Shown here one piece after another: positions 389 through 10,771 of a stretch of 11,721 nucleotides of DNA. The position numbers and the translations under genes are program-made. How positions within the stretch are numbered: position 1 is the stretch's first letter; each line of letters begins with the position of its first letter. The DNA is from a virus. The notes under the pieces were generated by a model. It saw nothing but the letters and a program-made list of their open reading frames with translations. It ran no database searches and had not been told where the DNA came from. Location: UHGV virus genome UHGV-1593293. The stretch is one strand, 5' to 3'.

Positions 389-877
389 ATGGCAGCACCA
401 AAGGGCAACCGATTTTGGGAGGCCCGCAGTAGTCATGGGCGAAATCCTAAATTCGAATCGCCTGAGGCGCTGTGGGCTGCTTGTTGTGAATACTTCGAGT
501 GGGTGGAAGCTAACCCGCTATGGGAGATGAAGGCGTTCTCGTATCAGGGTGAAGTGATACAAGAGCCTATCGCCAAGATGCGAGCGATGACCATTACCGG
601 CCTCACTCTGTTCATTGATGTGACGCTTGAAACATGGCGCACATATCGCCTGCGAGAAGATTTATCTGAAGTCGTTACGCGAGCAGAACAGGTCATCTAC
701 GACCAGAAATTCTCTGGCGCAGCCGCTGACCTTCTCAACGCTAACATCATCGCCCGTGATTTGGGCCTCAAAGAGCAGTCGCAAGTTGAAGACGTGACAC
801 CTGATAAGGGAGATCGCGATAAGCGACGCTCTCGTATCAAGGAGCTATTCAACCGTGGAACTGGACGCGATTCTTGA
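389..877 (+). CDS. terS: Terminase small subunit (P22 gp3-type, 162 aa)
   Basis: 162-aa ORF whose sequence ([29 protein letters not shown]...) I recognise as P22 gp3; same length as P22 gp3; contains the pac-like sequence; lies directly upstream of terL. Confidence 0.93.
657..678 (+). other. Candidate pac site (P22-type packaging initiation sequence) embedded in terS
   Basis: Sequence AAGATTTATCTGAAGTCGTTAC inside terS matches my recollection of the 22-bp P22 pac site, which lies within gene 3; exact boundaries are from memory. Confidence 0.55.
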
Positions 878-2354
878 TAACCTGAGCGACGAAGAGCAAA
901 TCGAATTGCTCGAGCTACTCGAAGAAGAAGAGAACTACAGGAACACACACCTGCTATATGAATTTACGCCATACAGCAAACAGCGTGAGTTCATCGACGC
1001 CGGGCATGACTATCCAGAGCGCTGTTTTATGGCTGGTAACCAGCTTGGTAAGTCATTTACTGGGGCTGCTGAAGTCGCGTTTCACCTTACCGGGCGTTAT
1101 CCGGGAACAAAAGGCTATCCGGCTGATGGTAAATATGGTGGGGAGTGGAAAGGTAAGCGTTTCTATGAGCCTGTTGTCTTCTGGATTGGCGGCGAGACAA
1201 ACGAGACTGTAACCAAAACGACTCAACGCATCCTGTGTGGTCGTATCGAAGAGAATGATGAGCCAGGCTACGGTTCCATACCTAAAGAAGACATCATTAG
1301 CTGGAAGAAGTCTCCTTTCTTTCCGAACCTTGTTGATCATCTTCTGGTTAAGCATCACACGGCTGATGGCGTTGAAGATGGCATTTCAATCTGCTACTTC
1401 AAACCATACTCGCAAGGCCGCGCTCGCTGGCAGGGTGACACAATCCACGGCGTGTGGTTTGACGAAGAGCCACCATACAGCATTTATGGCGAAGGTCTTA
1501 CCCGTACCAACAAATACGGGCAATTCTCAATTCTGACGTTTACCCCGCTGATGGGGATGTCTGACGTTGTTACCAAGTTCCTGAAGAATCCCAGCAAGTC
1601 GCAGAAAGTGCTCAACATGACCATCTATGACGCTGAGCACTACACCGACGAGCAGAAAGAGCAAATCATCGCATCCTATCCTGAGCATGAGAGAGAGGCG
1701 CGTGCTCGCGGTATTCCTACGATGGGTAGTGGTCGAATCTTCCAGATACCGGAAGAGACGATTAAGTGTCAGCCGTTCGAGTGTCCTGATCACTTCTACG
1801 TAATTGGCGGGATGGATTTTGGATGGGATCACCCGCAGGCGCAGGTTCAGCTTTGGTGGGATAAGGACGCAGACACAATCTACGTTTCACGCGTGTGGAA
1901 GGCGAAAGAAAAAACAGCCGTTCAGGCATGGGGATCTGTTAAATCATGGGCGCATAAAGTGCCAACCGCATGGCCTCATGACGGAAACCAGCACGAGAAG
2001 GGCGGCGGTGAGCAGCTCAAAGGGCAGTATGCAGATGCTGGTTTTATGATGTTGCAGGAGCATGCGACATGGCCTGATGGCGGTAATGCTGTGGAGCCTG
2101 GCATCACTGAATTGCGCGACATGATGCTCGATGGTCGCTTCAAAGTATTCAACACCTGTGAGCCATTCTTTGAGGAGTTCCGCCTCTATCACCGTGATGA
2201 AAACGGGAAAATCGTCAAGCTTAACGACGACGTTCTCTCAGCCGTTCGCTATGCATACATGATGCGCCGCTTCGCCAAAATGATGCGCGACATCAAAAAA
2301 CCAAAAGAGAAAAAGATACCAGCCCCAATCAGGCCCATCGCACGGAGAACTTAA
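855..2354 (+). CDS. terL: Terminase large subunit (P22 gp2-type, 499 aa), GTG start overlapping terS 3' end by 23 nt
   Basis: 499-aa ORF, same length as P22 gp2 and very similar to its recalled sequence ([30 protein letters not shown]...); AAGGAG at 839-844 upstream of GTG 855; ends TAA 2352-2354. Confidence 0.93.
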
Positions 2355-4520
2355 ATGGCCGACGAAAACAGACTCAATTCCATTCTGTGTAAGTTTGACG
2401 CGGACTGGATGGCGAGCGATGAAGCCAGAACCGAGGCGACAAATGACCTGTATTTTAGCCGAGTGTCGCAATGGGATGACTGGCTATCAAACTACACTAC
2501 CCTGCAATATCGCGGACAATTCGATGTTGTTCGCCCGGTGGTCAGGAAACTGGTAGCAGAGATGCGCCGGAACCCTATCGACGTTCTCTTCCGACCCAAA
2601 GACGGCGCTAATCCTGATGCTGCCGATGTGTTGATGGGAATGTATCGTACTGATATGCGCCATAACACGGCAAAGATTGCCGTTAACGTTGGCGTTCGTG
2701 AGCAGATAGAGTCCGGCGTTGGTGCATGGCGTCTGGTCACCCAGTACGAAGACAACGACCCAACAAGCAACAATCAGGTAATCCGACGCCTTCCAATCCA
2801 TGAAGCCTGCTCACACGTCATATGGGACGCCAGCAGCAAGCAGATGGATAAGAGCGACGCTAAGCACTGCACGGTGATTAACGCCTTGTCACGCAATGGC
2901 TGGAAAGAGTTCGCAGAGGATTACGGTATTGATCCGGACACCTTGCCATCTTTCCAGAATCCGAACGATAAATGGCTGTTTCCGTGGGTATCGAATGATG
3001 TCGTCTACGTCGCTGAGTATTACGAGGTCGAAGAGAAGAAAGAGAAAGTCTTCATCTACCGCGACCCGCTGACAGGTGAGCCGGTCAGCTATTTCCAGCA
3101 GGATATCAAAGACGTCATCGACGACCTGGCTAATCGTGGATTCATTAAGGTAGCAGAGCGTAAGGTCAAGCGTCGGCGTGTGTATAAGTCGATCATCACA
3201 TGCACACAGATACTGAAAGACCGCGAGAAGATAGCCGGAGAGCATATTCCAATCGTTCCAGTGTATGGCGAATGGTCCTTCGCTGGTGACAAGGAGTGCT
3301 ACGAAGGAGTGGTAAGGCTGACGAAAGACGGTCAGCGCCTTCGTAACATGATCATGTCATTCAACGCCGATATTGTTGCTCGTTCACCGAAGAAGAAACC
3401 GACCTTCTTCCCTGAGCAAATCGAAGGCTACGAATACATGTACGGTGGAAATGATGACTATCCGTACTATCTGCAGAACATGACCGATGAAAACGGTAAC
3501 GACCTGCCGATTGGTCCAATCTCCTACATGGAAAACCCTGAAGTGCCGCAAGCCAACGCTTACATGCTTGAGGCTGCCACCAACGCAGTGAAAGAGGTGG
3601 CTAGTCTTGGCGTGGATGCGCAGGCAGCAAACTCTCAGGTCGCTTTCGATACCGTCAATCAACTGAACATGCGGGCAGACCTTGAGACATACGTGTTTCA
3701 GGATAACCTGGCTACCGCAATGCGACGTGATGGCGAGATTTATGCCTCAATGGTCAACGATATTTATGACGTTCCTCGTCATGTAACGCTGACACTTGAA
3801 GATGGTAGCGAGAAAGACGTTCAACTATACGCGCAAGTTGTATATTACCAGTCCGGTAATGTGGTCACACTCAACGACATTCGCGGTCGCTATGAGTGCT
3901 ATACAGACGTTGGACCATCCTTCCAGAGTATGAAGGAACAGAACCGCGCAGAGATTCAGGAGTTGCTCACCAAGGTTCCGCAAGGTACTCCAGAGTTCCA
4001 GATGCTGATGCTGCAATACTTCACGCTGCTTGACGGTAAAGGCGTCGAGATGATGCGAGAGTACGCGAACAAGCAACTGGTGATGATGGGGCTGAAGAAA
4101 CCAGAAACACCTGAAGAGATGGAGATGGTACAGCAGGCTCAACAGCAGCCGCAGCAGCCATCAGCAGAGCAAATTCAGGCGCAGGGTATCCTTCTGCAAG
4201 GTCAGGCTGAATTGCTCAAGGCAGAGAACCAACAGGCGCAGATTCAGGTTGAAGCCGCCAAGGTTGAAGCCCAAAACCAACTCAACGCCGCGAAGATTGC
4301 GGAAATCTTCAACAATATGGACCTCGACAAGCAGGCAGAACTGCGTGAGTACCTCAAGCTCGTAGGTCAATTCCAGCAACAGCGCAGCAAAGATGCTCGC
4401 GCTAACGCTGAGCTGCTTCTTAAAGATGCAGACCAGACTCATTCACAACGCATGGATTTCGCGAATCTTATGCGTCAAGTTCAAATCCCCTCCGGCGGAG
4501 TAGCCGAGACACCTCAATAA
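2355..4520 (+). CDS. 1: Portal protein (P22 gp1-type, 721 aa) with long Gln/Ala-rich C-terminal helical region
   Basis: 721-aa ORF starting immediately after the terL stop; N-terminus ([18 protein letters not shown]...[10 protein letters not shown]...) and C-terminus (...[10 protein letters not shown]...SGGVAETPQ) match recalled P22 portal; P22 portal is 725 aa. Confidence 0.93.
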
Positions 4521-4533
4521 GAGAGAGTTAACC

Positions 4534-5445
4534 ATGGACCAAACCACCGACATTCAGGCTTCTGAAGAATTAACCCTGCCCGGCAATCATGCAGCGGCAT
4601 CTGCTGATGGCTTAGTTGTCGATAATGCCAACGACATCGCAGGTCAGGAAGAAGGCTTCGAGATTGTCCTGAAAGACGATGAGAAACCAAAACAAGACCC
4701 GGCAACTAATGCTGAATTTGCCCGTCGCCGCATCGAACGCAAACGCCAGCGTGAGCTTGAGCAGCAGATGGAAGCGGTTAAGCGTGGAGAGTTGCCGGAG
4801 CACCTGCGGGTGAACCCTGAGTTACCAAAACAACCAGACCCTAACGATTATCTTTCCGAAGACGCACTGGCTAAGTACGACTATGACCAGAGCCGAGCAC
4901 TGGCTGCCTTCCAGCAGGCAAACAGTGAATGGCAGATCAAGGCTATGGACGCACGAAGCCAGGCTGTCGCCGAGCAGGGGCGCAAAACTCAGGAGTTCAC
5001 CCAGCAATCAGCGCAATACGTCGAGGCAGCCCGTAAGCACTACGACGCAGCGGAAAAGCTCAATATCCCTGACTATCAGGAGAAAGAGGATGCATTCATG
5101 CAACTGGTGCCGCCAGCAGTCGGTGCCGACATCATGCGCCTCTTCCCGGAGAAATCCGCTGCTCTCATGTATCACCTTGGTGCTAATCCTGAGAAAACAC
5201 GCCAGTTGCTGGCGATGGACGGGCAATCCGCGCTGATTGAACTCACTCGACTGTCAGAACGTTTAACTCTCAAGCCTCGAGCCAAGCCTGTTTCAGAAGC
5301 CCCGTTACCTGATGAACCCATTCAGGGACACGCTGTTGCTGCAAATATCTCTGCGATTGAAAAGCAGATGGAAGCGGCAGCAAACAAAGGGGATGTAGAG
5401 ACATACCGCAAGCTCAAGGCGCAACTGAATAAAGGAATTCGATAA
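4534..5445 (+). CDS. 8: Scaffolding protein (P22 gp8-type, 303 aa)
   Basis: 303-aa ORF, same length as P22 gp8; acidic, helical, Ala/Glu/Gln/Lys-rich composition; sits between portal and coat; stop overlaps coat start (TAATG). Confidence 0.9.
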
Positions 5446-6746
5446 TGGCATTAAAAGAAGGGCAGTTAGTTACTTACGCTATCGATGAAATCATCGAAAC
5501 CGTCCAGAACCTGACGCCAATGGCGTCCAAAGTGACAAAATACACCCCTCCGGCAGAATCCATGCAGCGTTCAAGCAACACCGTGTGGATGCCTGTTGAG
5601 CAGGAAGCGCCAACTCAGACTGGCTGGGATTTAACTGGCAAGGCAAGCGGGATTCTGGAACTCTCCGTGAAATGCAACATGGGCGATCCGGATAACGATT
5701 TCTTCGAGCTTCGTGCAGATGACCTGCGTGATGAGCGTTCTTACCGTCGCCGCATCCAGGCATCCGCCAGAAAACTGGCGAATAACATTGAGTCAGCGAT
5801 TGCCAAACAGGCAACTGAAATGGGCTCGCTTGTTGTTCACGATACCCGCGCAATTGGTCCATCATCTACTGACCTGTCTGGCTGGGATTTTGTGTCTGAT
5901 GCAGAGCGCCTGATGTTCTCCCGTGAGCTAAACCGCGATATGGGCATCAGTTACTTCATGAACCCTGACGATTACCGCAAATCAGGCCGCAACCTGGTAG
6001 ATGGTGACATCTTTGGTCGCGTTCCTGAAGAAGCGTATCGTAACGGTACTATTCAGCGTCAGATTGCTGGCTTTGATGAAATTCTTCGCTCACCGAAACT
6101 TCCGGCAGTTACCAAGTCAACCGCTACTGATGTAACTGTGACTGGAGTGCATAAGTTTAAGCCGCAGGCATACACCCTTGATACCGATGGTAACAAAGAG
6201 AACGTCGACAACCGTGTTGCAACGGTGACCGTATCCTCCACCGCCGGATTTAATCGCGGCGACAAAATCAGCTTCACTGGTGTGAAATTTCTGTCTCAGA
6301 TGGCGAAGAACGTGCTGACTGATGATGCGACTTTCTCAATCACCCGTGTGATCGATAGTACTCACATCGAAATCACGCCGAAGCCGATTGCACTGGATGA
6401 CGAGTCACTGACAAAAGAAGAGAAGGCTTACGCTAATGTAAACACCTCTCTTGCTGCGAGCGCTACGGTAAACGTTCTGAATGTGGCAACAACCACCGCT
6501 AACGTGTTCTGGGCTGATGACTCAATCCGCCTGCTGTCTCAGCCGATCCCGGTAACCCATGAACTGTTTGCTGGTATGAAAACGTCTTCCTTCAGCATTC
6601 CTGGCATTGGTGTTAACGGCATCTTCGCAACGCAGGGTGATATCAACACTCTGTCTGGCAAGTGCCGTATTGCTGTGTGGTATTCAGCATGTGCTGTACG
6701 ACCAGAGGCAATTGGTGTTGGTCTGCCTAACCAGACTGCGCGATAA
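5445..6746 (+). CDS. 5: Major capsid (coat) protein (P22 gp5-type, 433 aa)
   Basis: 433-aa ORF (P22 coat 430 aa) directly after scaffold with ATG overlapping the scaffold stop; followed by a strong terminator, as expected for the most highly expressed structural gene. Confidence 0.9.
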
Positions 6747-6750
6747 CCAG

Positions 6751-6775
6751 AGGGAGCTTCGGCTCCCTTTTTTAT
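6751..6775 (+). terminator. Rho-independent terminator downstream of coat gene
   Basis: AGGGAGC-TTCG-GCTCCCT perfect 7-bp GC-rich stem with a TTCG tetraloop (6751-6768), followed by T-run TTTTTTAT; starts 5 nt after the coat stop codon. Confidence 0.8.
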
Positions 6776-6787
6776 CTGGAGACAAGC

Positions 6788-7024
6788 ATGACACACATGA
6801 TCTTTCGTCATGGAGACATGAAGAAATGGAAAGGCGTTGGATACGACTTTGAAATCGTGAAAGCCGAAGAGCTTCAGGAATATCTGGATGCTGGTTGGTT
6901 TTCACATCCTGATGACCTTTTGAAGGATGTTGCAGAGCCAGAGCCAGAGCCAGAAGAAAAACAGCGTAAAAAGCCTGGTCGAAAACCTAAGGCGGCAGCA
7001 GATGAACCTGACAACGAAGGGTGA
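6788..7024 (+). CDS. Small hypothetical protein (78 aa) in the P22 orf69 position between coat gene and gene 4; acidic EPEPEP stretch followed by basic KKPGRKPK tail
   Basis: ATG 6788 lies 8 nt after GGAG at 6777-6780; 78-aa ORF; 3' end overlaps the gene 4 start by 23 nt; P22 carries a small ORF (orf69) at this position as I recall. Confidence 0.5.
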
Positions 7025-7502
7025 TTTAGTTCTTGCGGCATTACGTAAGCTCGGTGTGGCATCAAATGCCACGTTAACCGATGTCGAACCGCAGTCTATG
7101 GAAGACGGCGTTAACGACCTTGAAATGATGATGGCTGAATGGCTTGGCGGTGATGCGTCACCAGGTATCAACGTTGGCTACATTTTCGCTGATGCAGATG
7201 TCGCTCCAGATCCTGGCGATGAACACGGTTTATCAAATAACGCTATCAATGCCGTCATTTTCAACCTTGCCTGCCGCATTGCTCCGGATTATGCGCTGGA
7301 AGCGTCTGCAAAACTTATAACCACTGCCAGATACGGGAAAGAGAGACTCGTCAAACTGTCTGCAATGGATAGGGCAAAAGCCGCTAAATGTAAGTCCGGT
7401 TATCCAAACCGTATGCCTGTTGGTAGTGGTAACCAGTTGGCGAAGTGGAATGGTTGGAATTACTTCCACCGAAAGGAACCTTGCGATAACGGGAGCGAAT
7501 AA
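7002..7502 (+). CDS. 4: Portal-associated head-completion / tail accessory protein (P22 gp4-type, 166 aa)
   Basis: The ORF track gives 6927-7502, but the ATG at 7002 yields 166 aa (P22 gp4 length) beginning [21 protein letters not shown]..., which resembles recalled gp4; AAGG upstream at 6989-6992; stop overlaps gene 10 start (TAATG). Confidence 0.8.
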
Positions 7503-8920
7503 TGCCTATTCAGCAACTTCCGCTTATGAAAGGTGTCGGCAAAGACTTTCGAAACGCCGACTATATCGACTATCTGCCAGTGAATATGCTGGCTACACCC
7601 AAAGAAATCCTCAACAGCAGCGGATATCTTCGCTCATTCCCGGGCATTGCCAAACGTTCTGATGTGAACGGTGTATCTCGAGGCGTCGAGTACAACATGG
7701 CGCAGAATGCTGTTTATCGTGTGTGTGGTGGCAAGCTGTACAAAGGAGAAAGTGAAGTCGGTGACGTTGCCGGAAGTGGTCGCGTATCAATGGCGCATGG
7801 TCGGACATCACAGGCAGTAGGCGTTAATGGTCAACTGGTCGAGTATCGCTATGATGGCACGGTTAAAACCGTCTCAAACTGGCCTACAGACAGCGGATTC
7901 ACGCAGTATGAGTTAGGTTCGGTCCGTGACATTACGCGCTTACGTGGGCGTTATGCGTGGTCAAAAGACGGTACTGATTCATGGTTTATCACTGACCTTG
8001 AAGACGAATCGCATCCTGACCGCTACAGCGCACAATATCGTGCCGAGTCGCAGCCTGACGGCATCATCGGAATCGGAACATGGCGAGACTTCATCGTCTG
8101 CTTTGGTTCATCGACGATTGAGTATTTTTCCCTGACTGGTGCAACCACCGTTGGTGCTGCTTTGTATGTCGCCCAGCCATCGCTGATGGTGCAGAAAGGT
8201 ATTGCCGGGACTTACTGCAAAACGCCGTTTGCTGATTCCTATGCGTTCATCAGCAATCCGGCAACGGGTGCGCCGTCTGTATACATCATCGGCTCCGGTC
8301 AGGTGTCACCAATCGCCAGCGCGAGCATTGAGAAAATCCTCCGCTCCTACACTGCTGATGAACTGGCTGATGGCGTGATGGAATCGTTGCGGTTTGATGC
8401 TCATGAGTTGCTGATTATCCATCTTACGCGTCACGTCCTCGTGTACGACGCATCTTCAAGCGCCAATGGCCCGCAATGGTGTGTGCTGAAAACAGGCCTG
8501 TATGACGATGTGTACCGCGCTATCGACTTCATTTTCGAAGGCAATCAGATAACGTGCGGCGATAAGCTGGAATCTGTTACCGGGAAATTGCAGTTCGATA
8601 TCAGCAGCCAGTACGACAAGCAGCAGGAACACCTGCTGTTTACTCCGTTGTTCAAAGCGGATAACGCCAGAGTGTTTGACTTTGAGGTTGAATCGTCAAC
8701 TGGCGTTGCGCAGTACGCCGACCGCCTTTTTCTCTCTGCAACCACTGACGGCATCAATTACGGTCGTGAGCAGATGATTGAGCAGAATGAACCGTTCGTT
8801 TACGACAAGCGTGTTTTGTGGAAGCGTGTCGGGCGAATAAGGAAAAATGTCGGCTTCAAATTGCGCGTTATCACAAAGTCACCTGTCACTCTGTCTGGCT
8901 GCCAGATAAGGATTGAGTAA
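7502..8920 (+). CDS. 10: Tail hub / head-completion protein (P22 gp10-type, 472 aa)
   Basis: 472-aa ORF, identical in length to P22 gp10 and at the expected position after gene 4; start overlaps gene 4 stop and its own stop overlaps the gene 26 start. Confidence 0.85.
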
Positions 8921-9621
8921 TGGCTGATTCGAATCTCAACACCCCTGTTATTGTGCAGGCGACGCGGCTCGATACATCAATCCTTCCACGCAATATATTC
9001 AGCCAGTCTTACCTGCTGTATGTCATTAATCAGGGGGCTGATGTCGGCGCAATTGCCGGGAAGGCAAATCAGGCTGGTCAGGGCGCTTACGATGCTCAGG
9101 TGAAAAACGATGAACAGGATGTCGAACTGGCTGACCACGATGCAAGAATCACCGCAAACACAAAAGCGATAAATCTCCTTGAGGTCAGGTTAACAACCGC
9201 CGAAGGGAAGATAGTCGTACTGCGTAGCGATGTTGATTACTTGCTGGATGAAGTTATCGATATTCAGGCGCATCTGGTCACTGTTGACAAAAGACTGGAT
9301 GACGTAGAAAACGATGTCTCTGGCATTAAGAGTGATTACGTATCGAAAACCGTAACCAAATTGCAGTCTCTTGCGTCACCGCTGGATGTAAAAACATCAT
9401 ATTCAGTTGATGGAATTCAGGTTGTTGGAGCAAGAAATACCGGATGGACTGCAGCCACAGGTACACCTCTTCTTGGCTCATTCAACGCTAACCAGTCATA
9501 CACGGTCGGCACTACGTACACACAATCCGAAGTCGCGGCTCTCGCTACAGGTTTGCAGCAGGCGCGGCAGCGTATTCTGGCGCTTGAAACGGCACTTAGA
9601 TTACATGGGCTGATTGACTGA
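8920..9621 (+). CDS. 26: Tail needle / plug protein (P22 gp26-type, 233 aa), trimeric coiled-coil fibre
   Basis: 233 aa, same as P22 gp26; N-terminus ([25 protein letters not shown]...[48 protein letters not shown]) and C-terminus (...[35 protein letters not shown]) match recalled gp26. Confidence 0.9.
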
Positions 9622-10078: not shown

Positions 10079-10771
10079 ATGTTATATGCATTTAAGCTGG
10101 GCAGAAAACTGCGCGGCGAGGAACCTTATTGCCCTGAAAAAGGCGGGAAAGGTGGCAGTTCTGATAAAAGCGCAAAGTATGCAGCAGAAGCTCAGAAGTA
10201 TGCTGCAGACCTGCAAAATCAGCAGTTCAACACCATCATGAACAACCTGAAGCCGTTTACTCCTCTGGCTGATAAGTATGTCGGCAGCCTCGAGAACTTA
10301 TCGTCTCTGGAAGGGCAAGGTCAGGCGCTTAACCAGTATTACAACTCTCAGCAGTATAAAGACCTTGCAGGTCAGGCTCGCTATCAGAGTCTGGCGGCAG
10401 CGGAAGCAACAGGTGGATTGGGTTCCACCGCAACCAGTAATCAGTTAGCAACAATCGCACCAACGCTTGGTCAGCAATGGCTATCTGGTCAGATGAACAA
10501 CTACCAGAATCTGGCAAATATTGGTCTTGGCGCACTGCAAGGTCAGGCAAACGCCGGGCAGACATATGCCAACAACATGAGTCAGATTTCGCAGCAAAGT
10601 GCGGCTCTTGCAGCGGCAAATGCCAACAGACCATCAGCAATGCAATCTGCTATTGGCGGAGGTGCGTCTGGTGCTATTGCTGGGGCTGGACTTGCGAAAT
10701 TAATTGGTTCATCAACTCCGTGGGGGGCTGCGATCGGCGGCGGTCTTGGTCTGCTTGGCTCGTTGTTTTAA
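10079..10771 (+). CDS. 7: Ejection (internal virion) protein (P22 gp7-type, 230 aa), Gln/Asn/Ala/Gly-rich
   Basis: 230 aa (P22 gp7 229 aa); GGGAGA SD at 10068-10073; low-complexity Q/N/A/G composition and a glycine-rich hydrophobic C-terminus typical of P22-like ejection proteins; correct synteny. Confidence 0.8.
   Translation: MLYAFKLGRKLRGEEPYCPEKGGKGGSSDKSAKYAAEAQKYAADLQNQQFNTIMNNLKPFTPLADKYVGSLENLSSLEGQGQALNQYYNSQQYKDLAGQARYQSLAAAEATGGLGSTATSNQLATIAPTLGQQWLSGQMNNYQNLANIGLGALQGQANAGQTYANNMSQISQQSAALAAANANRPSAMQSAIGGGASGAIAGAGLAKLIGSSTPWGAAIGGGLGLLGSLF

Follow-up and report, generated by a model that had tools for sequence, protein, structure and literature searches.

A small gene between coat and gene 4 of a P22-like phage encodes a modular orf69-family protein with a hypermutable Glu-Pro spacer and a basic tail

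The 11,721-nt UHGV virus genome UHGV-1593293, called here the window (the whole stretch of DNA that was analysed), is a P22-like virion assembly operon, as its open reading frame (ORF) sizes and homologies indicate, and between its coat gene and gene 4 lies a small ORF that is the subject of this study. An earlier note, made from the sequence alone, had singled out this ORF as a frame of 78 amino acids (aa) with a good Shine-Dalgarno sequence, a 23-nt overlap with gene 4 and, towards its end, three copies of GAGCCA encoding EPEPEP followed by a Lys/Arg-rich patch. These features are as described: the ORF runs from ATG 6788 to TGA 7022-7024, a GGAG stands at 6778-6781, the overlap with gene 4 spans 7002-7024, the GAGCCA copies are exact at 6935-6952, and Tandem Repeats Finder (TRF) and the charge segments agree on repeat and patch. 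The small ORF is a genuine, conserved and selected gene of the late operon, and its family membership, modular architecture, repeat hypervariability and synteny are established here. The features of the locus are as follows, those at and around the small ORF first.

6749..6770, plus strand: terminator-like hairpin just 3' of the coat stop, UUCG loop and T-run
6778..6781, plus strand: putative Shine-Dalgarno GGAG of the small ORF, read from the sequence, 6 nt before the ATG
6788..7024, plus strand: small ORF, 78 aa and stop, P22 orf69 / PHROG 1175 family
6788..6931, plus strand: N-terminal domain, residues 1-48; predicted beta-hairpin, helix, G-W...P motif and short helix
6933..6954, plus strand: (GAGCCA)3 repeat (TRF) encoding EPEPEP, in the acidic proline-rich spacer, residues 49-57
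6959..6991, plus strand: basic AT-hook-like patch, K/R-rich, residues 58-68, net +7
6992..7021, plus strand: acidic C-terminal end, residues 69-78; the same DNA carries the ribosome-binding site and opening codons of gene 4
7002..7502, plus strand: gene 4, head-tail adaptor / packaged-DNA stabilisation protein, 166 aa
389..877: small terminase
855..2354: large terminase
2355..4520: portal
4534..5445: scaffold
5445..6746: coat
7502..8920: gene 10

The earlier note had let the reality of the gene hang on whether its reading frame is kept in related phages. IMG/VR was scanned with a 27-nt pattern for the invariant tail DNA, which returned 120 loci, and GenBank loci were added; the frame is intact in every one of the 117 complete loci of the combined set, and it is kept in seven close phages that carry 2, 3, 5, 6 or 8 copies of the repeat. 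Over the first 144 nt, 96 copies of the gene represent 42 distinct sequences, and 21 of the 28 variable sites fall at codon position 3. Read in the small-ORF frame, these differences count as 22 synonymous and 9 non-synonymous, with zero stops; the other plus frames give 2/27 and 5/25, and the minus frames 5/26, 15/15 (with 2 stops) and 0/29. The GGAG ribosome-binding site is invariant among 7 related phages. The locus is also present in 217 of 5426 complete E. coli genomes, with strain W46 100% identical, and among the matches listed RefSeq annotates the product as 'hypothetical protein'.

The same region has been read as an N-terminal extension of the gene 4 product (gp4) opening at ATG 6927, with the repeat translated as SQSQSQ and no separate small gene. 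The frame that opens at 6927 does continue into gene 4, and the GenBank records of IME10, Louie and Dewey are annotated in this way, with gp4 starting at the equivalent ATG, the repeat read as SQSQ and the small gene omitted. Against this stands the solved P22 gp4, to which gene 4 of the window is clearly related (phmmer E = 7.9e-57 against the PDB chain; 58.8% identity by tblastn): its residue 1 aligns to residue 26 of the longer ORF opening at 6927, which is the codon at 7002, and upstream of 7002 no gp4 homology was found in the gp4 frame. The substitution pattern fits the small-ORF frame only, and an AAGGA lies directly against ATG 6927 with zero spacer; the ribosome-binding site of gene 4 is an AAGG at 6989-6992, 5' of ATG 7002 and inside the small ORF. 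P22, Sf6 and HK620 moreover annotate a separate small gene. The extension is effectively excluded, and we give it next to no credence; as the alignment places it, the true start of gene 4 is 7002, and the analysis settles the conflicting public annotations of this start. Public records place it differently (loci L002, L005, L006 828 onward, L001 933-1433), and the APC_JM3.2 record labels gp4 'recombinase RmuC' while already marking a repeat_region.

The homology search that the earlier note had proposed assigns the product to phrog_1175 (E = 2e-37, residues 1-76 of 78), the group that is also matched by P22 orf69 (E = 4.5e-31). The latter protein (NP_059631), MKIAIYKPGGSIMVWGVMAQMKVIDSSELPEYVKDGWLDHPSKLLPVEADDVKPRKGRKPKAVSDADKD, aligns over its full length with the small-ORF product at 33% identity, and by these comparisons the small ORF is the orthologue of P22 orf69, in the epsilon34 gene 6 family (PHROG 1175). 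P22 orf69 occupies the same place between the coat stem-loop and gene 4, overlaps gene 4 by 17 nt and has the same architecture, consisting of an N-terminal domain with GW..HP, an acidic linker, a basic KGRKPK tail and an acidic end; it differs in having a short, non-repetitive linker, PVEADDV, where the window has the GAGCCA repeat, and in sharing only 33% identity. The family (epsilon34 gene 6, ST64T Orf-186, ST104 ORF54; PHROG 1175 / 3769) has been recognised since the P22 packaging-gene sequence of 1991 and is catalogued in PHROGs, so that the gene itself was already known. In PMC2629481 Villafane, Casjens and colleagues treat these proteins as the family of epsilon34 gene 6, with an internal deletion in the P22 homologue, and the passage concerned, citing Eppler et al. 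1991, gives this homologue as non-essential in the laboratory. They call the role of the family unknown, in line with the earlier note's remark that ORFs at this position in P22-like phages are uncharacterised. No study with P22 orf69 as its subject surfaced in the literature (ORF69 of Stx phage Sp5 is unrelated). Pfam gave only DUF7302, at E = 0.029 and below the cut-off, and NCBIfam gave no match.

Close homologues of the small ORF number 334, in Escherichia and Salmonella prophages, and an exhaustive search of 1.8 billion cluster representatives returned 30 proteins at E <= 0.001 (clusters at about 50% identity); a second search with the family profile added few further distant members. The small family members share an invariant G-W...P, usually a Glu-Pro run, and a basic tail. 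Across 20 divergent relatives G36, W37 and P41 are invariant, and the motif G-W-x-x-(H)-P is found. Every relative, down to about 30% identity, has the terminator hairpin of the coat gene on one side and the gp4 gene on the other. For five distant members the contig was identified, and four of these stand directly before a P22_Tail-4 (gp4) gene; in L012, L014 and L015 the small gene also follows an identified P22 coat gene. The upstream gene of L140 is cut and hence unnamed, and the contig of L142 is too short for its neighbours to be named. Proteus phage V3 and Vibrio phage 1.003.O, the latter with a gp4 of about 29% identity, show the same order of coat, hairpin, small ORF and gp4. The small gene and gene 4 overlap by 23 nt in the window, and the figure is 17 in P22, 26 in Sf6, 11 in L012 and 1 in L014; in L015 and L140 they do not overlap. 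The earlier note had thought the charge-segregated, repeat-containing architecture unusual for a virion assembly operon; the gene turns out to be a fixed syntenic part of one, down to the lineage with the 29%-identical gp4.

Several variants of the family depart from the arrangement in the window. The longer, epsilon34-type members contain an inserted WDGH domain (PF25311), absent from the window protein. Within the E. coli lineage this insertion occurs in 20 of the 117 loci, between a different allele of the N-terminal domain and the same repeat and tail, and a mosaic joint at or near the repeat is suggested by this comparison. The WDGH variant is 195-214 aa long (L037, L045, L062, L098 and others in IMG/VR; E. 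coli H110-H114) and has 1-5 Glu-Pro copies; its repeat and tail have the protein sequence of the window, and the 27-nt tail segment is nucleotide-identical. In Vibrio phage 1.003.O (L138 421-717) and in P0146 (L140 849-1169) the N-terminal domain and the slot before gp4 are kept, and the basic tail is replaced by longer C-terminal segments, ELREQIKALGGKPAGRSSIETLEKQL and LEQRAAALGLKIDGRWSPETLAEKI. A tentative reading of these two segments as a HeH/SAP-like DNA-binding motif found no support in Pfam (both) or in a PDB sequence search (P0146 only). One E. coli protein, P0001, has an internal 13-aa duplication in the N-terminal domain.

A second group of phages has a small gene in the same slot. 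Sf6 gene 6, HK620 hkbT and an APSE-2 ORF (PHROG 3251) resemble the small ORF in position, in overlap with the gp4 homologue, in size (61-65 aa) and in a basic KRGRK or KKGKR close to a C-terminus that is acidic or polar; they differ in belonging to phrog_3251 and in having no Glu-Pro repeat. Homology between the small-ORF family and Sf6 gene 6 was considered and rejected, as hhalign gave a probability of 1.3% with 7 tail residues aligned. The APSE-2 member is an unannotated 65-aa ORF before gene P27 (NC_011551, L137 508-705; phrog_3251 E = 7.8e-30). Searches for hkbT and for the WDGH domain returned no relevant literature.

Structure prediction, also proposed in the earlier note, separates the protein into two parts. 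In an AlphaFold2 model built from 22 diverse sequences residues 1-46 are predicted to be folded and residues 47-78 disordered. The predicted local distance difference test score (pLDDT) is 85-91 over residues 1-40, and the model has two strands forming a beta-hairpin (2-14 and 17-25) and two helices (26-35 and 42-46). Residues 12-52 resemble repeat units in three GIY-YIG/HNH homing endonucleases (P0138, P0148 and P0150), with whole-library phmmer E-values of 1.4e-5 to 8.7e-4 that are summed over the 4-5 units of each protein; hhalign of the N-terminal domain against the endonuclease repeat gives a probability of 96.3% and E = 1.8e-9 over only 20 columns, which cover the strand, the helix and GW. 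The two appear to share the strand-helix-GW motif 'V..EELQ.YL..GW'; in the endonuclease unit the hairpin is shorter than in the N-terminal domain, and G stands at its end where the latter has HP. This motif may be taken as a lead toward DNA binding; it is not evidence for it. The endonuclease repeat itself is about 35 aa long (K.YINKDG..K.V..EELQ.YLNDGW..G) and occurs in 4-6 copies per protein, with NUMOD3 alongside in P0138. It is covered by no Pfam model, and a search for a well-studied homing endonuclease that carries it found none, tblastn matching one Chryseobacterium phage record. PDB sequence searches with the N-terminal domain and endonuclease-repeat profiles returned only chance or compositional matches.

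The charge of the protein is segregated, with a net -4 over residues 1-48, -5 over 49-57, +7 over 58-68 and -4 over 69-78. The acidic spacer, predicted to be disordered (pLDDT about 50), is encoded by the repeat, which TRF places at 6933-6954 with a period of 6, 3.7 copies and a 100% match; in 200 dinucleotide-preserving shuffles of the window the repeat never arose, even with 2 mismatches allowed. The earlier note had suspected that the number of repeats would vary, and it does so widely. Named phages have 2, 3, 5, 6 or 8 copies, and 95 IMG/VR loci have 1-14 with no preferred number. In E. coli genomes the spans range, among the matches listed, from 307 to 397 nt, mostly in 6-nt steps that correspond to about 1-16 copies. 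Contigs with nucleotide-identical flanks have from 3 to 14. Of about 530 units 458 read GAGCCA, and a relative about 41% identical has five copies of CCAGAG. The repeat is thus hypermutable and in frame: because its unit is six bases long, neither frame is ever broken and only the length of the spacer is altered. The tolerated variation in copy number argues for a flexible tether and not a ruler. In keeping with separate modules, a WDGH domain can be inserted between the N-terminal domain and the spacer with spacer and tail unchanged. The repeat could serve as a fast-evolving marker for typing close P22-like prophages in E. coli. The window has three further tandem repeats, short and imperfect and of about 2 copies, at 4130-4158, 9401-9429 and 10168-10209 (periods 12, 15 and 21); they fall within the homologues of portal, gene 26 and gene 7.

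The spacer resembles the proline-rich one of TonB, in which (Glu-Pro)n runs into (Lys-Pro)n and the whole is extended and stiff. The two are alike in that an acidic Glu-Pro run is followed by a basic Lys/Pro-rich run; the resemblance is compositional only, the proteins are non-homologous, and the small-ORF product is cytoplasmic, without a signal peptide or membrane anchor. Pfam returned only compositional matches here, such as procyclin.

The tail of the window protein reads KKPGRKPK, with the core PGRKP. At the aligned position of 20 divergent relatives, four have RGRP (P0134, P0136, P0145 and P0147), one has GRP (P0144), three have GRKP, three have GPKP, and the others have other K/R-rich strings. 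The basic residues are encoded by different, GC-rich codons in L014 (AAA CGC CGC GGA CGC CCA) and L012 (AAG CGT AGA GGC CGC CCG), which argues that tail basicity reflects selection on the protein and not an A-rich leader of gene 4. AT-hooks of the HMGA type (PF02178) and the Q/RGR motifs of H-NS and Lsr2 are, like this tail, short disordered K/R/P/G peptides with a G-R core. AT-hook motifs insert into the minor groove of AT-rich DNA, and bacterial Q/RGR 'AT-hook-like' motifs bind the DNA minor groove in H-NS and Lsr2 (PMC6936261); the likeness of the window tail to them is one of sequence. The last ten codons of the gene hardly vary because they also encode the ribosome-binding site and start of gene 4, and the acidic end varies at one position only among 7 related phages.

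The transcriptional setting appears to be that of an internal gene of a late operon. The hairpin at 6749-6770 has 9 pairs, a 4-nt loop and a T tail in a terminator scan, and the surrounding RNA (6740-6800) folds at -20.2 kcal/mol (z = -3.75), a stability equalled by none of 200 shuffles. It is annotated as a stem_loop in P22 and as the coat terminator in Sf6 and HK620, and presumably it sets the ratio of coat to downstream products. A UUCG/T-run hairpin follows the coat gene in every lineage inspected (L007 275-292, L008 288-314, L014 about 3958-3985). A scan of 6400-7300 found no promoter-like site, and Rfam gave no match to 6600-7200 at E <= 1. At the start of gene 4 the structure of the messenger RNA does not exceed that of shuffled controls (z = -0.09). 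A masked gene 4 ribosome-binding site was therefore rejected, and since the region folds no better than shuffles there is no masked site that would need opening.

Taken together with the position of the gene, this anatomy suggests a tentative reading, one that we doubt slightly more than we believe, in which the small-ORF product is an accessory head-completion factor with a tethered nucleic-acid-binding tail. The gene would be read from late-operon transcripts that pass the hairpin after coat and would be translated from its own GGAG, with its end overlapping the ribosome-binding site and start of gene 4. The product comprises three modules, namely the N-terminal domain with its predicted fold (residues 1-46), the (Glu-Pro)n spacer and the K/R/P/G AT-hook-type tail with its acidic end, and the length of the spacer drifts freely by slippage of GAGCCA. 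The N-terminal domain might dock on a head-completion partner or on DNA, leaving the basic tail, on a flexible spacer of non-critical length, to bind nucleic acid, the likeliest target being the phage DNA at its minor groove or backbone. The protein would then lend dispensable help to the packaging or retention of DNA or to the completion of heads by gp4. Favouring this reading are the strict association with the gp4 gene, which appears to link the small ORF to head completion, and the contigs with identical flanks and 3-14 copies, from which it is plain that the length of the spacer is not critical; the RGRP cores in four of the 20 relatives provide a lead toward DNA binding. A more specific version, in which the orf69 family is a conserved DNA-tethering accessory of head completion in P22-like phages, we consider unlikely. 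Here the N-terminal domain would dock on gp4, portal or DNA, and the AT-hook-type tail would grip either the end of the packaged DNA or the complex of terminase with DNA, a function like that of lambda gpFI carried out by an unrelated fold that shares a module with the DNA-binding regions of homing endonucleases.

A number of observations weigh against a nucleic-acid-binding role in head completion. Binding of DNA or RNA by the family, which the earlier note had raised, is a proposal drawn from sequence likeness, and the Pfam AT_hook model (PF02178) gave no match to the window protein even at E <= 10; in relatives it appears below threshold in two of 20, with a best E of 0.047, the cut-off being 17.4 bits. 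The window tail lacks RGRP, the canonical AT-hook core, and for this reason the product is not a canonical AT-hook protein; the label 'AT-hook-like' in the earlier note is fair in view of the relatives with RGRP or GRP, and the window's own PGRKP falls short of the canonical core. The tails of some relatives, for example P0125 and P0137, are degenerate. Fold searches were uninformative and found no solved structural relative of the N-terminal domain, and the endonuclease match covers 20 columns only, in a repeat that is itself not known to bind DNA. To our knowledge the small-ORF protein is not among the recognised P22 virion proteins. Any role in assembly could be accessory at most, since the P22 homologue is given as non-essential in the relevant passage of PMC2629481.

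Other readings account for parts of the same evidence. The product could be a protein-protein tether or transient assembly chaperone whose basic tail would recognise, in place of nucleic acid, an acidic surface on an assembly protein such as gp4, portal, scaffold or terminase or on the interior of the coat. The strict linkage to the gp4 gene across deep divergence would suit such a role, as would the way in which the end of the small gene overlaps or abuts gene 4 in the window, P22, Sf6, L012 and L014, and the divergence of the gene along with its neighbours (33% identity to P22 orf69 vs 58.8% for gp4). The analogy in position and logic is with lambda gpFI. This small protein with a flexible linker is encoded just after the major capsid gene and before the head-completion genes and acts as a catalytic, non-virion packaging helper, and mutants lacking its function have a strong phenotype. 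The small ORF shares with gpFI its position after the coat gene; it differs in domain order, which is reversed, in the dispensability reported for P22 orf69, and in having no sequence or fold match to gpFI, to which, as judged by these comparisons, it is not related. Pfam, PDB and fold searches indeed found no similarity to gpFI or to any chaperone, and the RGRP cores of the relatives suggest that the tail contacts the minor groove of DNA and not a protein, which leaves the chaperone improbable.

Less probable still is that the ORF serves as a translational-coupling leader, reloading ribosomes after the coat hairpin and delivering them to the gene 4 start, with a peptide that matters little. 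The overlapping or abutting of its stop with the gene 4 start (23 nt in the window, 17 in P22, 26 in Sf6, 11 in L012, 1 in L014), the location of the gene 4 ribosome-binding site inside it and the reported non-essentiality in P22 (in the passage of PMC2629481) are all compatible with this. Such a leader is hard to reconcile with the strong purifying selection on the amino acids of the N-terminal domain (22/9), the invariance of GW..P over deep divergence, the confident predicted fold, the zero overlap in L015 and L140, and a gene 4 start region that, being unstructured beyond shuffles (z = -0.09), offers nothing masked to open. A host-directed accessory, be it a moron (as the earlier note had also proposed), an anti-defence factor or a regulator, would be a small DNA-binding protein acting on the host or on competing elements. 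The same report of laboratory non-essentiality, the small, charged and rapidly diverging product with its hypervariable repeat, and the variant with an inserted WDGH domain could all be accommodated by it. The gene nevertheless has no promoter-like site (6400-7300) and no terminator of its own, the hairpin lying upstream and not downstream; it diverges along with its neighbours, holds a fixed operon position in all lineages examined rather than a patchy one, and among the matches listed gives no hint of having been exchanged separately from them. Given the lack of a promoter-like site and the fixed synteny, we do not take it for a moron, and we regard a host-directed role as very unlikely. The accessory head-completion factor with a tethered nucleic-acid-binding tail remains our tentative proposal. 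For the earlier note as a whole, the observation itself is confirmed and the interpretation partly supported.

Among short-tailed phages P22 serves as the reference for how capsids are assembled and DNA is packaged, yet its morphogenetic operon contains in orf69 a gene, kept wherever a gp4 gene occurs, that has been without an assigned role since 1991. A literature search found no analysis of the modules, no link to the endonuclease repeat, no report of the AT-hook cores in distant relatives and no measurement of repeat hypermutability. What is gained is a testable anatomy, comprising a folded GW domain, a hypermutable Glu-Pro spacer and an AT-hook-type tail. Should the tail not bind DNA, the gene stays an ordinary, dispensable small ORF; should it do so, an accessory step would be added to head completion in a well-studied system.

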